A stretch of 64,000 bases of DNA from NCBI RefSeq assembly GCF_017348835.2, contig NZ_CP071375.1. The stretch is one strand, 5' to 3'. A model generated the notes under the pieces. That model was not told the origin of the DNA. It made no database searches and was given only the letters and a program-made list of their open reading frames with translations. Below, piece by piece: positions 11,709 to 58,644 of this stretch (position 1 is the first letter of the stretch; each line of letters starts with the position of its first letter). The position numbers were made by a program, and so were the translations under genes. This stretch comes from Escherichia coli. GTDB lineage: Bacteria > Pseudomonadota > Gammaproteobacteria > Enterobacterales > Enterobacteriaceae.

Positions 11709-11720
11709 CACGCTACCGCC
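11709..11720 (-). promoter_or_regulatory. ops element (RfaH recruitment site) within the JUMPstart sequence of the wza leader
   Basis: Plus strand reads cacgctaccgcc, whose reverse complement is GGCGGTAGCGTG, the ops consensus; lies in the long untranslated leader upstream of wza. Confidence 0.7.
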
Positions 11721-11933
11721 CCTGGCTTTTTAGCTACCAATACACTGATTTAGCTTAATTTTTCAAACCCTCTCAACATACAGTCGTTGATGAGAAAGGG
11801 TTATTGTGGAAATTAACTTCCGAATATAAGGTGACATTATGGTAATTGAATATTGGCTCTCCAATAATGCAGGAGGAAGTGTTACAGCTAACGGAATAGC
11901 AGGCAAGGTAACAATTCGGCAATTGGCTATTTT

Positions 11934-23797: not shown

Positions 23798-25747
23798 TCA
23801 GCAGCGGCTTAAATCTGCCTGCGCCTGAGCCAGTTTTTCTGCCGCCTGACGTAACGGTTCCATCAACGGCATGGTCCGTGCTGGAGCATGAAGGCGGAAT
23901 CGCTGCAACTCTGTCGCGCCGACAGTCAACGCCGATTCCAGCCGATGTCGTTTGGCGGCCATTTTCGCCATTACCGCTTGTCTGTCTGCAGGCGTTACCG
24001 CTTCGTTCGGCCTGAACACAAAACGGCGTTCACAGCTCGCTTTCCAGTCGATAACCGCCTGGGTCAGATGATCACCAAACCCTTTAACTTGCTTAACCCC
24101 ACGACGGGTAACATCCGCGGCTGTTTCAATACCAAAAGACCGTAACGCCGCTTTACGCGCAGGGCCAACGCCGGGAATAGAGGCAGCATCAATAAAAAAT
24201 CCCTCCAGAAACTTCTGCTTCTGCCGTTCCCTTGCGGTGTCGTGAAGTGCTGCCAGAGCACGTTTTTCTTCTTCCGGTAACCCGAGAATTTCTTCCTTCA
24301 TTTTTTCGAGCATCGTCCGTTTGGCGATAAAACCTTCCAGCCCGCCCAACTGTTGGATCTGGCTGACTAAATGGTCATAGTCCATTTTCGCGCGATTAAA
24401 TGCCTCACGGCGTTGCTGGATTTCTGCTTTATAAGCTTTGCTTGTCAGACTGCCAATAATCCAGATAGCCGCCAGCACAGGAACCAAAATAATATAACGC
24501 GGTTCTGCCTGAAGGCCGCAAAGCAGCAGCGATACCGCTGACAGTGCGATCTCAATCAGGATGATGTATTCGCGCCGTAACAGGCCTGAAGGAAGCGGCC
24601 TGCCAGTCGGTTGGAAATGATCGGGTAATGGCAGTTGCAATGCTGGCGGCGCTACTGACGCCATCACCATCGCCCAGACTTTCGCCAGCACAAAATCACC
24701 GCTGGTGGTAATGACCTCTTCGCCGAGATCAATAAAATAGATAACGCCTTGATTATCCAGCGCACACCACGGGCAGTCAGTCAAATGAGCTGGGTAAACA
24801 TGCATTGCTGAAACGGTACATTTCTTTAACTGTTGGCGTAGAGAGTCCAGTGCCGCTACCCACGCTTTAGCCGTCGGACGCCCCGTTGCCACGCCACTTT
24901 CCGTGAATGCCTGCTGAAACATGGCTTCAACATCACTCGGTAACATCGATAGCGGAATAGATCGTGGCGGCGGTTTTAAACCACGTCGCTGATTATCTGA
25001 CGCGTAGGCATAACGGAAATGGGTAATATCCGTCTCCAGCGCATTACCCGCATCAGAGATAAGCGGCACACCAGAATAAGGATGCCGCCCACCAAACAAG
25101 ACGTGAAAAATCAGCAACGCAAGGCCAAAATTATCGTGATTCGCGGTACGTTCAAAACCGACAAATGATGGCAAGGTTTGTAGCTCTGGCGGCGTAAAAT
25201 GCGACACGCCGACTTCGCATAAATGCAGTGTGCCATTGGCGTTAATCTGAAAGGAGTCACTATCGATCAACACCACTTTGCTGTCGCGACCTACCATAAA
25301 GCTGTTCTGGTTTACGTCCCCCACGACGTGCCCGTGCTCGTGAACCGTAGCAAAAGATGAAGCAATATTGCGCGCAACATAGAGTAGAAAATCCCACGCA
25401 CAATGAGGGTAACGTTGACGACGATGTGCCGGGCTATAGATCATATGAATCGGTTCTTTACCAGAAACTTTTGGCATCATAAAACCGATAACTTTTCCGC
25501 CTCGTCCACCGTGAAGCGTTGCCTGCGGCCAGGCGACATAATTCAACAACTGCGCGTCAGCTGTCGCAGCCATAAAGGCAAGTTTGTCCTGTTTTAAGGC
25601 GGGTGGCGGCGTGTGATAAATCTTGGCGACGCTATCGACAAACTCATTGATATCATAAACCGCGCCTTCGCCACCTTTGCCCAGTTCACGGCCTGGCGTA
25701 ACGCACTCACCAGTAGCAGTATATAAAGTGGGTTTCATGGTAACCAC
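23798..25747 (-). CDS. yegI: Hanks-type Ser/Thr protein kinase-like membrane protein YegI
   Basis: 649-aa ORF; kinase-like N-terminal region, central transmembrane segment(s), C-terminal helix-hairpin-helix-like region (GVGPARKAALRSFGIE). Confidence 0.85.
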   Translation of the reverse strand: MVTMKPTLYTATGECVTPGRELGKGGEGAVYDINEFVDSVAKIYHTPPPALKQDKLAFMAATADAQLLNYVAWPQATLHGGRGGKVIGFMMPKVSGKEPIHMIYSPAHRRQRYPHCAWDFLLYVARNIASSFATVHEHGHVVGDVNQNSFMVGRDSKVVLIDSDSFQINANGTLHLCEVGVSHFTPPELQTLPSFVGFERTANHDNFGLALLIFHVLFGGRHPYSGVPLISDAGNALETDITHFRYAYASDNQRRGLKPPPRSIPLSMLPSDVEAMFQQAFTESGVATGRPTAKAWVAALDSLRQQLKKCTVSAMHVYPAHLTDCPWCALDNQGVIYFIDLGEEVITTSGDFVLAKVWAMVMASVAPPALQLPLPDHFQPTGRPLPSGLLRREYIILIEIALSAVSLLLCGLQAEPRYIILVPVLAAIWIIGSLTSKAYKAEIQQRREAFNRAKMDYDHLVSQIQQLGGLEGFIAKRTMLEKMKEEILGLPEEEKRALAALHDTARERQKQKFLEGFFIDAASIPGVGPARKAALRSFGIETAADVTRRGVKQVKGFGDHLTQAVIDWKASCERRFVFRPNEAVTPADRQAVMAKMAAKRHRLESALTVGATELQRFRLHAPARTMPLMEPLRQAAEKLAQAQADLSRC

Positions 25748-26496
25748 AGCGCCAGTGCCAACGTTTTATCATCATCGGTACGCTCGTTTACCGCTGGGCT
25801 CGACAAAAACTGCTTTAACAATTCAGGTAATAAATCGAGTTGTTCCTGCGTTGCTGCCGCCAGTCCATTGAAAAAAGAGGTAAAGAAAGGCACATGGGGA
25901 GAATTATCCAGCATATTTAACGCCAGTCGCTGGATACCATCCGTAAATGCTGCAACTTTATGCACACGCTCAGTGCTGGTGAAAGTTTCCAGTCTGGAAA
26001 CGGCATCTTCATCGGTAATGAAGTGCGTCATATTGGCATATTCACCCACCATCGGCGTGAGCGGCAGTTCCAGACCACGACCAAAATCCACCACTACACC
26101 GCCGTCGCCAATTTGCATAATCAATGTGCCGTTAGCCGATGAAATCAATCCCAGAAACGTGCAGGCAAAATCGCGAACCGCTAATGCTTTGGCTTCCGCC
26201 TCGGCAAAAAGTCGCTGACGAATGGTCAGCACAATATCCGTGGCGAGGACATCATTAACCCCCAATTCACCGCCCTGTACTTTTTGCATCATAAACGCCA
26301 TCGCTTCATTGACGGCGAGCGTCGCGCCTTCTCCTCCCTGCGAAACGCTACCTGCGCCATCAGCAAGGAACATCACCAGTAATGGTTGCTGGTCGTTTAG
26401 CCAGGCAACCTGCATCTGGCAGGCATCCTGACAAGGTAAATCAGCGCTAATGTGCGACGTTCCAACAGCGGATGCATAAACCAGACGCCAGCTCAC
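25735..26496 (-). CDS. yegK: PP2C-family Ser/Thr protein phosphatase YegK
   Basis: 253-aa [30 protein letters not shown]...FLADGAGS..., PP2C metal-binding motifs; overlaps yegI start by 13 nt. Confidence 0.85.
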
Positions 26497-27152
26497 ACTG
26501 ACGTCCAGCCTTTTGGCGCTTCCAGCACAACTTCCGTTCCCGGCGTGGAGCGGGAAACCGAACGCAGCGAACTGGATAACCAGCTAAACAGTTCACGGAA
26601 TTGTAATCCCTGCAGTGGCAAAGGCTGACGAACGCTGATTTGTGCCAGCGTCTTCATATCCGCCCCCTGAACACCGATGGAAAAGAAGGCAAACTTCTTA
26701 TCTTCTTCCCCCTGAAACACTTTGTTGGCGGCAGCCTGCCACTCATCGGTTGGAGCGCCATCGGTGATCAGGAAAATCCACGGGCGATAATACGAAATAC
26801 CATTTGCGCGGTACTCACGTTTCCTCTCTTCAACCATATCCAGGGCTTTGGTAATGGCGGCCCCCATAGGCGTATCCCCCTGGGCAAACAGGATGGGCGG
26901 GAAAAAGTTAGCGGCGCTGGTAAAGGGTTGTTCCACATGCACCGGGCCGAACGTCACAATGCCGAGTTCCACTCTTTTTAAAGCCAGCGGATCAGCAAGC
27001 AGTTCATCACGAAAGGTAACCAATCCGGCGTTAAGTTCATTAATAGGTCTGCCGCTCATCGAGCCAGAAACATCCAGCAGCAGAATGCAGGGGCAACGTG
27101 GTTCCGGGTTACTGGCAAAATCGCTGGTGGCAAACGTGATTTGTTCGCTCAT
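26493..27152 (-). CDS. yegL: von Willebrand factor A (vWA) domain protein YegL
   Basis: 219-aa ORF with vWA MIDAS motif ([10 protein letters not shown]); 4-nt overlap with yegK. Confidence 0.85.
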
Positions 27153-27333
27153 AAGAAATCCTTTCTTAGAGAATTATTGAGGTCCGGTATCATACCGACT
27201 GCAATAATGAAATAAGAGCAGGCAAAGCAACTTTCAGAATTCGGCCCGGCGGCGCAGAAAATTTTGCTATTCGCCTCGCAAGAACGGAGAGCCGTCGATT
27301 GACACTAAGGGCGGAGTGACATAATTTCAGGAG

Positions 27334-27482
27334 TGAGGGTTAGGGAGAGGTTTCCCCCTCCCCCTGGTGTTCTTAGTAAGCCTGGAAGCTAATCACTAAG
27401 AGTATCAGCAGTATGATGACGTGCTTCATCATAACCCTTTCCTTATTAAAAGCCCTCTTCTCCGGGAGAGGGTTTCCCGTTT
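27334..27482 (+). ncRNA. sibA: Sib antisense sRNA, copy 1 (approximate ends)
   Basis: Plus-strand transcript fully overlapping the ibs ORF; candidate -35 ttgaca at 27299-27304 and terminator hairpin gccctcttctccgggagaggg + T-tract near 27450-27482. Ends inferred, not mapped. Confidence 0.6.
27373..27432 (-). CDS. ibsA: Ibs type I toxin, copy 1 (19 aa, MMKHVIILLILLVISFQAY)
   Basis: Hand translation of the reverse complement of 27373-27432; hydrophobic membrane peptide typical of Ibs toxins. Confidence 0.7.
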   Translation of the reverse strand: MMKHVIILLILLVISFQAY

Positions 27483-27667
27483 CAGCGTCCCGCTGAAATC
27501 GTCGGCTTACCTCCTTTCGCCCTGAATGCAGTCTATCGCTAACGCGTGAACAAAATAGTTCCCTCTGTGATTATTGCGTAACGACTCGCAAAGAATATTT
27601 GCTGGCAGGATCGCAGACTGCAAAGCCTGCAGATTGACAATCTTATCGTGAAGGCATACTTTCAGGA

Positions 27668-27811
27668 GTGAGGGTAGAGTGGGGTTTCCCCCGCCCTGGT
27701 AGTCTTAGTAAGCCGGGAAGCTTATGACTAAGAGCACCACGATGATGATCCACTTCATCATGACCCTTTCCTTATTTAAGGCCCCTTCCTCGGGAGGGGC
27801 TTTCCCGTTTC
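27668..27811 (+). ncRNA. sibB: Sib antisense sRNA, copy 2 (approximate ends)
   Basis: Candidate -35 ttgaca at 27634-27639, -10-like tacttt; terminator ggccccttcctcgggaggggc + T-tract ending about 27811. Confidence 0.6.
27705..27761 (-). CDS. ibsB: Ibs type I toxin, copy 2 (18 aa, MMKWIIIVVLLVISFPAY)
   Basis: Hand translation of the reverse complement of 27705-27761. Confidence 0.65.
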   Translation of the reverse strand: MMKWIIIVVLLVISFPAY

Positions 27812-27994
27812 AGCGTCCCGCTGAAATCGTCGGCTTACCTCCTTTCGCCCTGAATTCAGTCTATCGCTAACGCGTGAACAAAATAGTTTCCTCTGTGATT
27901 ATTGCGTAACGTCTCGCAAAGAATATTTGCTGGCAGGATCGCAGACTGCAAAGCCTGCGGATTGACATTCTGAACGTGAAGGCATACTTTCAGG

Positions 27995-28138
27995 AGTGAG
28001 GGTAGAGCGGGGTTTCCCCCGCCCTGGTAGTCTTAGTATGCTGGGTAGCTAATCACTAAGAGCACCACGATGATGAGTATCTTCATCATGACCCTTTCCT
28101 TATTTATGGCCCCTTCCTCGGGAGGGGCTTTCCCGTTT
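27995..28138 (+). ncRNA. Sib antisense sRNA, copy 3 (extra copy relative to the two I remember at this K-12 locus; approximate ends)
   Basis: Third repeat unit with the same promoter-like ttgaca…tacttt and terminator hairpin ggccccttcctcgggaggggc + T-tract. Confidence 0.55.
28033..28089 (-). CDS. Ibs type I toxin, copy 3 (18 aa, MMKILIIVVLLVISYPAY)
   Basis: Hand translation of the reverse complement of 28033-28089. Confidence 0.6.
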   Translation of the reverse strand: MMKILIIVVLLVISYPAY

Positions 28139-28296
28139 CAGCGTCCCGCTGAAATCGTCGGCTTACCTCCTTTCGCCATGCAAGCAGTCTATCGCTAACG
28201 CGTAGATAAAATAGTTTCCTGTGTTATTACTGGATGCGTGCTCGCAAATGTGCCCGCCATTCAGACGATTCCCGATAGTGTTTCATAATTCCTCCA

Positions 28297-28314
28297 TTTT
28301 TCTCCCTTATTGGC
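28297..28314 (+). promoter_or_regulatory. BaeR box upstream of mdtA
   Basis: TTTTTCTCCCTTATTGGC closely matches the remembered BaeR consensus TTTTTCTCCATDATTGGC; about 55 bp upstream of the mdtA start. Confidence 0.55.
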
Positions 28315-28367
28315 TGGCTACACTAGTATCATTCCGCGAAACGTTTCAGGAAGAGAAACTCTTAACG

Positions 28368-29615
28368 ATGAAAGGCAGTTATAAATCCCGTTGGGTAATC
28401 GTAATCGTGGTGGTTATCGCCGCCATCGCCGCATTCTGGTTCTGGCAAGGCCGCAATGACTCCCAGAGTGCAGCCCCAGGGGCGACGAAACAAGCGCAGC
28501 AATCGCCAGCGGGTGGTCGCCGTGGTATGCGTTCCGGCCCATTAGCCCCGGTTCAGGCGGCGACCGCCGTAGAACAGGCAGTTCCGCGTTACCTCACCGG
28601 GCTTGGCACTATTACCGCTGCTAATACTGTTACGGTGCGTAGCCGCGTGGACGGTCAACTGATGGCGTTACATTTCCAGGAAGGCCAGCAGGTCAAAGCA
28701 GGCGATTTACTGGCAGAAATTGACCCCAGCCAGTTCAAAGTTGCATTAGCACAAGCCCAGGGCCAACTGGCAAAAGATAAAGCCACGCTTGCCAACGCCC
28801 GCCGTGACCTGGCGCGTTATCAACAACTGGTAAAAACCAATCTCGTATCTCGTCAGGAACTGGATGCCCAACAGGCGCTGGTCAGTGAAACCGAAGGCAC
28901 CATTAAGGCTGATGAAGCAAGCGTCGCCAGCGCACAGCTGCAACTCGACTGGAGCCGCATCACCGCACCAGTCGATGGTCGCGTTGGTCTCAAGCAGGTT
29001 GATGTTGGTAACCAAATCTCCAGTGGTGATACCACCGGAATTGTGGTGATCACCCAGACGCATCCTATCGATTTGCTCTTTACCCTGCCGGAAAGCGATA
29101 TCGCTACCGTCGTGCAGGCGCAAAAAGCCGGGAAACCGCTTGTGGTAGAAGCCTGGGATCGCACCAACTCGAAGAAATTAAGTGAAGGCACGCTGTTAAG
29201 TCTCGATAACCAAATCGATGCCACTACCGGTACGATTAAAGTGAAAGCACGCTTTAATAATCAGGATGATGCGCTGTTTCCCAATCAGTTTGTTAACGCG
29301 CGCATGTTAGTCGACACCGAACAAAACGCCGTAGTGATCCCAACAGCCGCCCTGCAAATGGGCAATGAAGGCCATTTTGTCTGGGTGCTGAATAGCGAAA
29401 ACAAGGTCAGCAAACATCTGGTGACGCCAGGCATTCAGGACAGTCAGAAAGTGGTGATCCGTGCAGGTATTTCTGCGGGCGATCGCGTGGTGACAGACGG
29501 CATTGATCGCCTGACCGAAGGGGCGAAAGTGGAAGTGGTGGAAGCCCAGAGCGCCACCACTCCGGAAGAGAAAGCCACCAGCCGCGAATACGCGAAAAAA
29601 GGAGCACGCTCCTGA
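28368..29615 (+). CDS. mdtA: Multidrug efflux membrane-fusion (periplasmic adaptor) protein MdtA
   Basis: ORF track 464 aa; ATG at 28368 gives the 415-aa product [27 protein letters not shown]... Confidence 0.93.
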
Positions 29616-32600
29616 TGCAGGTGTTACCTCCGAGCAGCACAGGCGGCCCGTCGCGCCTGTTTATTATGCGTCCTGTCGCCACCACGCTGCTGATGGTGGC
29701 GATCTTACTCGCCGGGATTATCGGTTATCGCGCCCTGCCCGTTTCGGCGCTGCCGGAAGTGGACTATCCGACCATTCAGGTGGTCACGCTCTACCCAGGT
29801 GCGAGCCCGGATGTCATGACCTCTGCCGTTACCGCGCCGCTCGAACGCCAGTTCGGGCAGATGTCTGGTCTGAAACAGATGTCGTCGCAAAGTTCCGGCG
29901 GTGCGTCAGTTATCACTTTGCAGTTCCAGCTAACATTACCGCTGGATGTCGCCGAGCAGGAAGTACAGGCCGCGATTAACGCTGCGACCAACTTGTTGCC
30001 GAGCGATCTGCCTAACCCGCCGGTTTACAGCAAAGTGAACCCGGCAGATCCGCCGATCATGACGCTCGCCGTCACCTCAACAGCCATGCCGATGACGCAA
30101 GTGGAAGATATGGTGGAAACCCGCGTCGCGCAGAAAATCTCGCAGATTTCCGGCGTCGGCCTGGTGACGCTTTCCGGCGGCCAGCGTCCGGCTGTTCGCG
30201 TCAAACTTAACGCTCAGGCGATTGCCGCCCTCGGCCTGACCAGCGAAACCGTGCGAACCGCCATTACCGGCGCTAACGTTAACTCGGCAAAAGGTAGCCT
30301 CGACGGCCCTTCCCGTGCGGTCACGCTTTCCGCGAATGACCAAATGCAATCTGCGGAAGAATATCGCCAGTTGATTATCGCCTACCAGAACGGCGCGCCG
30401 ATTCGTCTGGGCGATGTCGCAACCGTAGAGCAAGGTGCAGAAAACAGCTGGCTCGGCGCGTGGGCGAATAAAGAACAGGCCATCGTGATGAATGTTCAGC
30501 GCCAGCCCGGTGCTAACATTATCTCCACCGCCGACAGCATCCGGCAGATGCTGCCACAGCTCACCGAGAGTCTGCCGAAATCGGTGAAGGTGACGGTACT
30601 TTCTGACCGTACCACCAATATCCGCGCATCCGTCGATGATACTCAGTTTGAATTGATGATGGCTATCGCGCTGGTAGTAATGATTATCTACCTGTTTTTG
30701 CGCAATATTCCGGCGACCATCATTCCCGGCGTCGCAGTGCCGCTGTCGTTAATCGGCACCTTCGCGGTCATGGTGTTTCTCGATTTTTCAATCAATAACC
30801 TGACGCTGATGGCGTTAACTATCGCCACCGGATTCGTGGTCGATGACGCCATCGTGGTGATCGAAAATATTTCCCGCTATATCGAAAAAGGCGAAAAACC
30901 GTTGGCGGCGGCGCTCAAAGGCGCAGGTGAAATCGGCTTTACCATTATCTCGCTGACCTTCTCGCTGATTGCGGTGTTGATCCCACTGCTGTTTATGGGC
31001 GATATCGTCGGGCGACTGTTCCGCGAATTTGCTATTACCCTGGCGGTAGCGATTTTAATCTCAGCCGTGGTGTCGCTAACCCTGACACCGATGATGTGCG
31101 CACGGATGCTCAGCCAGGAGTCGTTGCGTAAACAGAACCGCTTCTCCCGTGCCTCGGAAAAAATGTTCGACAGGATAATCGCCGCCTATGGTCGTGGACT
31201 GGCGAAAGTGCTGAATCATCCGTGGCTGACCTTAAGCGTGGCGCTCAGCACGCTGCTGCTTAGCGTTCTATTGTGGGTGTTCATTCCGAAAGGTTTCTTC
31301 CCGGTACAGGATAACGGCATTATTCAGGGCACTTTGCAGGCACCGCAATCCAGCTCCTTTGCCAATATGGCCCAGCGGCAACGCCAGGTCGCGGACGTGA
31401 TTTTGCAGGATCCGGCAGTGCAAAGTCTGACCTCATTTGTTGGCGTTGATGGCACTAACCCGTCGCTGAACAGTGCGCGTTTGCAGATCAACCTCAAACC
31501 GCTGGATGAACGTGATGATCGGGTGCAAAAAGTCATCGCCCGTCTGCAAACGGCGGTGGATAAAGTGCCGGGCGTCGATCTCTTCCTGCAACCAACGCAG
31601 GACCTGACCATCGATACTCAGGTCAGCCGCACCCAGTACCAGTTTACCTTGCAGGCCACGTCACTGGATGCGCTCAGTACCTGGGTGCCACAGTTGATGG
31701 AAAAACTCCAGCAGCTGCCACAGCTATCTGATGTCTCCAGCGACTGGCAGGACAAAGGGCTGGTGGCGTATGTCAATGTTGATCGCGACAGCGCCAGCCG
31801 TCTGGGGATCAGCATGGCGGACGTCGATAACGCCCTGTACAACGCGTTTGGTCAGCGGCTGATTTCCACTATTTATACTCAGGCTAACCAGTATCGCGTG
31901 GTGCTGGAGCACAACACCGAAAATACCCCAGGGCTTGCGGCGCTGGATACCATTCGCCTGACCAGTAGCGAAGGCGGCGTGGTGCCGTTAAGCTCAATTG
32001 CCAAAGTTGAACAGCGTTTTGCGCCGCTTTCCATCAACCATCTGGATCAGTTCCCGGTAACGACCATCTCTTTTAACGTGCCAGATAACTATTCGCTGGG
32101 CGATGCGGTGCAGGCGATTATGGACACCGAAAAGACGCTGAATCTGCCGGTGGATATCACCACGCAGTTCCAGGGCAGCACCCTCGCCTTCCAGTCGGCG
32201 CTGGGCAGCACTGTCTGGCTGATTGTCGCGGCGGTGGTGGCGATGTATATCGTGCTCGGCATTCTATACGAGAGCTTTATTCACCCGATCACCATTCTCT
32301 CGACGCTACCCACCGCAGGGGTCGGCGCACTGCTGGCGTTAATGATTGCCGGTAGCGAACTGGATGTGATTGCGATTATCGGCATTATTTTGCTGATCGG
32401 TATCGTGAAGAAGAACGCCATCATGATGATCGACTTCGCGCTGGCTGCTGAGCGCGAGCAAGGCATGTCGCCGCGCGATGCAATCTACCAGGCTTGTCTG
32501 TTGCGTTTTCGTCCGATCCTGATGACCACTCTGGCGGCTCTGCTTGGCGCGCTGCCGCTGATGTTGAGTACCGGGGTCGGCGCGGAACTGCGTCGTCCGT

Positions 32601-42130: not shown

Positions 42131-42214
42131 TTAATTTCGATTATTTTTCCCGGATGGAAAATTCTTAGAAACCGATCACATACAGCTGCATTTATTAAGG
42201 TTATCATCCGTTTC

Positions 42215-42301
42215 GCTGAAAAACATAACCCATAAAATGCTAGCTGTACCAGGAACCACCTCCTTAGCCTGTGTAATCTCCCTTACACGGGCTTATTTTT
42301 T
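42215..42301 (+). ncRNA. cyaR: CyaR (RyeE) Hfq-dependent sRNA
   Basis: gctgaaaaacataacccataaaatgctagctgtaccaggaaccacctccttagcctgtgtaatctcccttacacgggcttatttttt matches my memory of CyaR, including the terminal hairpin and U-tract. Confidence 0.85.
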
Positions 42302-50572: not shown

Positions 50573-50712
50573 CGTTATTTTATGCCGGATGCAGTGTAAA
50601 CATACGTGGCAGCGCTGTGTAGGCATGATAAGACGCTTCAGCGTCGCATCAGGCATAGGTTGCCGGATGCAGCGTAAACGCCTTATCCGTCCTACGGGGT
50701 GGTGTTGTTCGT
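50573..50712. repeat. REP/BIME cluster between gatY and fbaB
   Basis: gccggatgcagtgtaaacatacg…gataagacgcttcagcgtcgcatcaggc…gccggatgcagcgtaaacgccttatccgtcctacg, multiple inverted REP units. Confidence 0.7.
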
Positions 50713-58511: not shown

Positions 58512-58644
58512 AGTTTGCTCCTGCCATAACGTGAAGAAGCAATGACCTGGTGGTCCGTGACTTCCCTACGCTGGCATTATCCAGATCAGGTGATACGGGT
58601 ATTTCTCAGCCTTCACGCAGAAGGGCACCCCGAGTCGTTTGGTT
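58512..58644 (-). promoter_or_regulatory. TPP (THI-box) riboswitch in the thiM leader
   Basis: Minus strand reads aaccaaacgactcggggtgcccttctgcgtgaaggctgagaaatacccgtatcacctgatctggataatgccagcgtagggaag…ggcaggagcaaactATG, which matches the well-studied E. coli thiM aptamer and expression platform as I remember it. Confidence 0.9.

Follow-up and report, generated by a model that had tools for sequence, protein, structure and literature searches.

Among the closest described systems to the locus considered here are the chromosomal Sib/Ibs type I toxin-antitoxin loci of Escherichia coli K-12. The antitoxin RNA SibC has two domains, each acting independently, by which it recognizes ibsC mRNA, namely TRD1 (+46 to +68, in the P5 loop and within the ibs ORF) and TRD2 (+99 to +115, in J1/7 and across the translation-initiation region); these fall where the Sib family varies most, and their exchange alters specificity (Han 2010, PMC2943612). 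In the passages of that paper that cite Fozo 2008, repression is described as restricted to the cognate pair, with ibsA as the exception (PMC2943612). As pairing spreads, translation is stopped and the Sib/ibs duplex is exposed to RNase III (Wen and Fozo 2014, PMC4147584), and the IbsC peptide depolarizes the membrane, with toxicity requiring residues 6-19 and the N-terminal residues being largely dispensable (PMC8309996). For the K-12 alleles it is known that an overproduced Ibs peptide is toxic and that the Sib RNA relieves this toxicity. The ibs-sib genes have been duplicated inside one intergenic region and their numbers differ among strains, with seven Ibs genes present in O157:H7 Sakai (Fozo 2010, PMC2887945).

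At the yegL-mdtA locus, K-12 MG1655 possesses only sibA/ibsA and sibB/ibsB. In the 64,000-nt stretch of E. coli DNA that was analysed (contig NZ_CP071375.1; the window), the corresponding gap holds three tandem Sib/Ibs units at spacings of 335 and 328 bp, which are positioned, oriented, and organized as in K-12 but number three instead of two, as the original prediction had it. A single array with a period of 328, 2.8 copies, 90% matches, and a score of 1436 is placed at 27320-28229 by Tandem Repeats Finder, and a repeat search of the window recovers three-copy families with spacings of 328-335 bp (repeat families D1-D5, of which the third copy of D2 reaches 28248), both of which bear out the three direct repeats of ~330 bp that had been described. 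Unit starts were set at the Sib -35 hexamer, found at 27299, 27634, and 27962, where a promoter-like ttgaca had been expected for each unit (Table 1). Because the repeats, the three ORFs, and three full-length SIB_RNA matches are all present, the array is confirmed well beyond chance. The assignment to the Sib/Ibs type I toxin-antitoxin family is backed by Rfam, by the RefSeq annotation of strain PE164, and by alignment with MG1655 sibA/ibsA and sibB/ibsB. The reading that we favor, with a probability of roughly 0.92, is a three-unit tandem array of the E. coli chromosomal Sib/Ibs type I toxin-antitoxin module that works as it does in K-12, the expression, toxicity, and repression of the window alleles being extrapolated from experiments in K-12.

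Table 1. Features of the three-unit sib/ibs array between yegL and mdtA, with positions counted from the first nucleotide of the window.
Feature	Position	Strand	Description	Basis
yegL	26493-27152	-	Left flank of array	
Whole sib/ibs array	27299..28248	.	Three units	Repeat search and alignment
Sib1 promoter	27299..27327	+	-35 TTGACA 27299-27304, 17-nt spacer, -10 TAATTT 27322-27327	Same as K-12 sibA promoter
Sib1 antitoxin RNA	27335..27478	+	SibA orthologue, 144 nt	MG1655 sibA ends; Rfam match 27299-27447, 143 bits; fold z = -4.4
ibs1 toxin ORF	27373..27432	-	MMKHVIILLILLVISFQAY, 19 aa, IbsA variant V9L	RefSeq WP_072149481.1 "type I toxin-antitoxin system toxin IbsA" (same PE164 position)
Sib1 intrinsic terminator	27450..27482	+	Hairpin 27450-27475, then UUUCCCGUUU tail	Fold; annotated SibA 3' end inside tail
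Presumed ibs1 promoter and 5' UTR segment	27479..27560	-		Alignments
Sib2 promoter	27634..27662	+	TTGACA 27634-27639, 17-nt spacer, -10 TACTTT 27657-27662	Hexamers same as K-12 sibB promoter
Sib2 antitoxin RNA	27670..27805	+	SibB-like, 136 nt	MG1655 sibB ends; Rfam match 27634-27776, 138 bits; fold z = -4.1
ibs2 toxin ORF	27705..27761	-	MMKWIIIVVLLVISFPAY, 18 aa	RefSeq WP_012767741.1, Ibs family toxin
Sib2 terminator	27778..27810	+	Hairpin 27778-27803 and U-rich tail	Fold
Presumed ibs2 promoter and 5' UTR segment	27806-27888	-	Unit 2	Alignments
Sib3 promoter	27962..27990	+	TTGACA 27962-27967, 17-nt spacer, -10 TACTTT 27985-27990	Sequence reading and alignment
Sib3 antitoxin RNA	27998..28133	+	136 nt	MG1655 sibB ends; Rfam match 27962-28104, 140 bits; fold z = -3.7
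ibs3 toxin ORF	28033..28089	-	MMKILIIVVLLVISYPAY, 18 aa	RefSeq WP_012767742.1, Ibs family toxin
Sib3 terminator	28108..28138	+	Hairpin 28108-28129 and U-rich tail	Fold
Presumed ibs3 promoter and 5' UTR segment	28134-28215	-	Unit 3	Alignments
mdtA	28368-29615	+	Right flank of array	

All three antitoxin RNAs match the Rfam model SIB_RNA (RF00113) on the plus strand over the entire model (positions 1-147 of 147), with E-values of about 1e-29 to 1e-31 and scores to be read against a gathering score of 56 bits, and a rerun over the whole window returned the same matches. The ends of the Sib RNAs were placed by alignment transfer from the MG1655 sibA/sibB annotation, and in each unit the Sib starts 8 nt past the -10 hexamer. 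Based on homology, the Sib1 promoter probably functions as its K-12 counterpart does, and its geometry agrees with the annotated 5' end of MG1655 sibA. The three Sibs have a common predicted fold, composed of a P1 closing stem, a P5 stem-loop, a P6 hairpin formed by AUGAUGA/UCAUCAU, and a single-stranded J1/7 (fold z-scores, -3.7 to -4.4), and each terminates in a GC-rich hairpin of 9-11 bp followed by UUUCCCGUUU, so that the predicted GC-hairpin/U-tract terminator is seen in all three folds, with a U-tract that is interrupted. In alignment with MG1655 sibA/sibB, the promoter, the P1/P5/P6 fold, and the intrinsic terminator of the experimentally defined K-12 Sib RNAs are all kept. A generic promoter/terminator consensus scan called none of the Sib promoters or terminators; the -10 hexamers (TAATTT or TACTTT) agree with the consensus at only three of six positions and are weak by that measure. 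As the sequences equal the annotated sibA/sibB elements of K-12, this miss is not counted against either class of element. A literature search on Sib expression in O157 gave nothing specific.

Three ORFs in the Sib-sense direction (27413-27496, 27724-27870, and 28070-28198) were rejected as genes; their starts lie within the P6-stem palindrome ATGATGA/TCATCAT, their lengths are unequal across the units, and those of units 2 and 3 overrun the Sib terminator.

Each of the hydrophobic ibs ORFs (18-19 aa) lies wholly inside its Sib in antisense orientation, with the Shine-Dalgarno (SD) sequence AAGGAAAGGG ahead of the ATG and both facing the 3' portion of the Sib, and the three minus-strand peptides given in the original prediction match these ORFs exactly. 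For peptides of <20 aa, membership in the Ibs family is taken as probable from the RefSeq naming and from identities of 18/19 residues (IbsA) and 16/18 residues (IbsB). Between the peptides of units 2 and 3, residues 4, 5, and 15 are the only differences, while the unit 1 peptide differs from both at more positions, is one residue longer, and has Q for P third from the C-terminus. These positions slightly correct the statement that the toxins differ at positions 4-9 and in the C-terminal tripeptide. The SD sequence and the ~75 nt upstream of it are near-invariant across the units, and the upstream/5' UTR region of ibs3 is identical to that of K-12 ibsB. The consensus scan located no ibs promoter in the A/B-type units; the start site of ibsC is 18 nt beyond the 3' end of SibC (Han 2010, PMC2943612).

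All three ORFs are intact with an SD sequence and a start codon, each Sib is complete and keeps the conserved architecture and terminator, and the promoter sequences equal those of the expressed K-12 sibA/sibB, all of which makes it very improbable that at least one of the units is a decaying, non-functional remnant, with a silent promoter or a non-toxic peptide, that is kept by tandem-repeat homogenization. Such a remnant would suit the weak Sib -10, the lack of an ibs promoter from the scan, and the ease with which units are gained and lost, and a K-12 strain without any of its five sib/ibs loci is said (in work of 2008 by Fozo) to have no phenotype. It would be harder to reconcile with the recurrence of the same peptides, unchanged, in lineages as distant as O157:H7, the B strain, and ExPEC blood isolates.

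The array sits at a locus that is nearly universal by megablast, with matches in 5,419 of 5,426 complete E. coli genomes, and its copy number was explored in a sample of 60 evenly spaced records, 59 of which were usable and among which partly covered cases were checked separately. Three units collinear with the window were found in 24 of the 59 genomes and two units in 26, while four or five units (seven genomes) and a single unit (two genomes) were less frequent. Given these 24 genomes, the sharing of the array with O157:H7, and the statements of Fozo 2010, the three-unit array is a common and already known copy-number polymorphism, occurring in ~40% of complete E. coli genomes, a frequency close to that of the K-12 state. 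That copy number would be strain-variable and prone to recombination had been anticipated, and arrays of 1 to 5 units in which units are shuffled and duplicated agree with this. Although short reads can lead to wrong assembly of ~330-bp tandem repeats, a third copy that is an artefact of assembly is exceedingly improbable and is rejected, because the units of the window differ by 7-25% and are not collapsed or expanded identical copies, and because a single collinear three-unit match recurs in the 24 complete genomes of the sample, including an independent genome with 100% identity and many O157:H7, and the arrangement is met in thousands of complete genomes overall.

Within the window, positions 25600-29900 are 100% identical to E. 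coli PE164, in which PGAP calls all three ORFs IbsA or Ibs family toxins. The locus was therefore known beforehand, with its exact sequence and its three toxin genes standing in RefSeq, and is neither a new kind of system nor a new variant. The O157:H7 locus has the same unit order, identical peptides in units 2 and 3, and 97% DNA identity over the locus; the three-unit array of the O157:H7 type differs from that of the window only by IbsA V9L and a few SNPs. The protein encoded by ibs2 (WP_012767741) recurs in O157:H7, BAP1, 21AR0303, and GN06156.

Compared with K-12, unit 1 is the orthologue of SibA/IbsA, with Sib1 differing from SibA at 2 of 144 nt, while units 2 and 3 are SibB/IbsB-type paralogues whose counterparts in the B strain, with its array of four, are units 3 and 4. 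Sib2 differs from K-12 SibB at 7 of 136 nt and Sib3 at 6 of 136 nt, five of them in TRD1, and both the ibs2 and the ibs3 peptide are identical to IbsB at 16 of 18 residues; the K-12 IbsB peptide itself, MMKLLIIVVLLVISFPAY, is encoded by neither unit 2 nor unit 3 of the window. Instead, K-12 SibB joins a TRD1 like that of window unit 2 to a TRD2 end and downstream spacer like those of window unit 3. The B-strain derivative BAP1 has four units, namely IbsA, the K-12 IbsB, and then the two of the window, with units 2 and 3 of the window matching BAP1 units 3 and 4 at 100% over the spacer and at 97-100% over the Sib, and Sib3 identical to BAP1 unit 4. ExPEC GN06156 has four units in the order A-742-741-901 (742/741 = WP_012767742/WP_012767741), and ExPEC 21AR0303 has five, one of which is a duplicate. 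Across these four- and five-unit arrays (BAP1, GN06156, and 21AR0303) the extra units are IbsB type, MMKILIIVVLLVISFPAY, and MMKLLIIVVLLVISYPAY, and the order is shuffled or units are duplicated. The remaining K-12 loci, sibC/ibsC and sibD/E-ibsD/E, belong to the same Rfam family, share the antisense nesting, and have TRD1/TRD2 positions that can be aligned with those of the window Sibs, but they are separated from the window Sibs by 38-63 differences and their ibs upstream/promoter regions are unrelated.

If the array works as in K-12, each minus-strand ibs mRNA would encode a hydrophobic inner-membrane peptide of 18-19 aa that depolarizes the membrane when overproduced, and each plus-strand Sib RNA (~136-144 nt), made constitutively, would be complementary throughout to both the ibs ORF and its ribosome-binding site. 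The first contact between Sib and ibs would be made through two exposed elements, with TRD1 (the P5 loop) facing the ibs ORF at its 3' end and TRD2 (the single-stranded J1/7) facing the SD sequence and start codon, from which pairing would spread, translation would be blocked, and the duplex would be cut by RNase III, leaving the toxin off.

Alignment was used to place TRD1 and TRD2 on the Sibs of the window. Of 136 positions, 11 distinguish Sib2 from Sib3 (five in TRD1, four in the P6 loop, one in TRD2, and one elsewhere), and ten of these differences fall within the published elements (TRD1, P6 loop, and TRD2; 53 of 136 nt; hypergeometric P = 3.5e-4). Four of the five TRD1 changes between ibs2 and ibs3 are synonymous, with F15Y as the fifth, a ratio expected under constraint on the peptide and a further point against a decayed unit, and the P6-loop changes alter ibs residues 4-5; the divergence is therefore mostly at the level of the RNA or in the dispensable N-terminus. 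The original prediction had proposed that each toxin co-varies with its cognate Sib, and the variable sites do coincide with the published target-recognition domains. Compensatory evolution, however, is not needed for this, because toxin and Sib are opposite strands of one DNA segment, so that their complementarity is automatic and their co-variation trivially true. The point of interest is the divergence of paralogues at the recognition elements, not the co-variation of toxin and Sib.

For units 2 and 3, with TRD2 nearly identical, the strict one-to-one specificity implied by assigning each toxin its own cognate Sib is not assured. Sib2 and Sib3 differ at 1 of 17 TRD2 positions, share an uninterrupted identical run of 26 nt across TRD2, and contain an identical J1/7 stretch, UCCUUAUU, that is predicted to be single-stranded in both folds. 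TRD1 and TRD2 act independently, a SibC mutant with a contiguous 25-bp TRD2 helix to ibsD repressed ibsD, and ibsA is recognized by non-cognate Sibs (Han 2010, PMC2943612). Because 26 nt and J1/7 are shared and a 25-bp TRD2 helix sufficed in that study, it is plausible, if at clearly less than even odds, that units 2 and 3 are non-orthogonal, with Sib2 repressing ibs3 and Sib3 repressing ibs2, and that the Sibs form a partly redundant antitoxin pool instead of three private pairs. Such cross-repression is not confidently predicted because SibD and SibE of K-12 share a 36-nt run into TRD2 and yet are reported to discriminate; SibA and SibE share 24 nt, and despite these runs repression in K-12 is cognate-only, with SibA not repressing ibsE, in the passages of Han 2010 that treat specificity (PMC2943612). 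Further, the lone TRD2 difference, A/T, lies at the foot of the terminator stem and may have an effect, and TRD1 (five mismatches) and the P6 loop (four mismatches) differ as much as in K-12 pairs that are discriminated. Cross-repression stands opposed to the pairing of each toxin with its cognate Sib and not to the family assignment.

The relationships among the B-type units were followed in 15 copies, with 11 distinct Sib sequences, from six genomes. Only 14 columns vary, with three haplotypes at TRD1, three at the P6 loop (ibs codons 4-5: WI, LL, and IL), and the A/T site at the TRD2 end. These haplotypes reassort, with T1b and T1c each occurring with both GAGTAG and GAGTAT and the A/T site found on all backgrounds, and a four-gamete test is positive, a result that depends on P6 haplotypes one nucleotide apart. 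As a difference of a single nucleotide leaves recurrent mutation possible, the pattern is held as suggestive, and it suggests that a small number of TRD1 and P6 haplotypes have been combined, mosaic fashion, in the units of the various strains. The K-12 sibB unit offers independent support for mosaicism; its Sib part is 99% identical to BAP1 unit 2 and its downstream spacer is 98% identical to BAP1 unit 4, which suggests the hybrid that an unequal crossing-over deletion between units 2 and 4 would leave. The two-unit state of K-12 and the three-unit state of the window may then represent alternative outcomes of unequal recombination inside the array.

More speculative still, and on balance doubtful, is the view of the array as a recombining cassette system in which unequal crossing-over or gene conversion would redistribute a few TRD1, P6-loop, and TRD2-end variants among the tandem units to form a partly cross-reacting Sib/ibs network, a consequence that would follow from mosaic units given that TRD1 and TRD2 each suffice for repression. 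Were this the case, Sib2 and Sib3 would cover each other's toxin via the shared TRD2, and the network would buffer the cell against the loss or gain of units and explain the drift in copy number from 1 to 5.

Under the favored reading of an array that works as in K-12, the importance of the locus beyond its correct annotation is small, in that it belongs to a textbook type I family, and RefSeq already lists the extra copy, which natural E. coli commonly carry. The third antitoxin gene is left unlabelled because PGAP genomes annotate the ibs ORFs and not the Sib RNAs. The model of Han 2010, in which TRD1 and TRD2 discriminate among targets, could be tested on the naturally occurring units that differ from those of K-12, and Sib2 and Sib3 are a useful test pair because they differ in TRD1 and in the P6 loop and hardly at all in TRD2.

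Among the arrays of BAP1 (a B strain), MG1655 (K-12), 21AR0303 and GN06156, the sequences suggest that the B-type sib/ibs units, those resembling SibB/IbsB, may be mosaics of a few haplotypes of the Sib recognition elements TRD1, P6 loop and TRD2 end, the mixing of which would result in the five distinct 18-aa peptides found in these units (WI-F, LL-F, IL-Y, IL-F and LL-Y). The yegL-mdtA arrays span one to five units, with the order shuffled and one unit duplicated. The PGAP annotations of PE164, O157:H7 and the other PGAP-annotated records, BAP1, 21AR0303 and GN06156 among them, list ibs CDSs, and none of the Sib RNAs is given there as an ncRNA. As sibA and sibB are annotated only in the MG1655 record among those compared, RefSeq lacks an annotation for the antitoxin gene of each extra unit.

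Just past each Sib terminator, the alignments reveal a ~75-nt segment that is nearly invariant across all of the units and strains compared, exceeding the conservation of the Sib/ibs overlap itself. The ibs-sense strand of this segment contains a hairpin (UUUCAGCG-GGAC-GCUGAAA) and a Shine-Dalgarno-like AAAGGAGGU, and the segment presumably represents the ibs promoter and 5' UTR; a generic promoter/terminator consensus scan located no ibs promoter within it. The corresponding region of ibsC, ibsD and ibsE is unrelated to that of the array units. On the Sib-sense strand, three ORFs have their start in the P6-stem palindrome ATGATGA; they were judged spurious based on this start, their unequal lengths and the extension of those in units 2 and 3 past the Sib terminator.

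Within 23798-26496 (minus strand), the end of pphC is directly overlapped by the yegI ORF, such that yegL-pphC-yegI form a single contiguous minus-strand block. PE164, O157:H7 and BAP1 share this layout, while in K-12 and GN06156 a plus-strand yegJ sits between pphC and yegI. This yegJ presence/absence polymorphism adjoins the sib/ibs array. Elsewhere in the window, four Rfam matches fit the K-12 gene order of this chromosomal region.

Features located in the window
Feature	Position	Strand	Basis
JUMPstart element	11709-11747	-	Rfam match
yegI kinase ORF, 649 aa	23798-25747	-	
pphC	25735-26496	-	
Sib-sense ORF, 27 aa	27413-27496	+	
Post-terminator segment, unit 1	27479-27560		alignments
Sib-sense ORF, 48 aa	27724-27870	+	
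Post-terminator segment, unit 2	27806-27888		alignments
Sib-sense ORF, 42 aa	28070-28198	+	
Post-terminator segment, unit 3	28134-28215		alignments
CyaR/RyeE sRNA	42213-42298	+	Rfam match
naRNA4 (REP-derived)	50622-50692	-	Rfam match
TPP riboswitch	58546-58642	-	Rfam match
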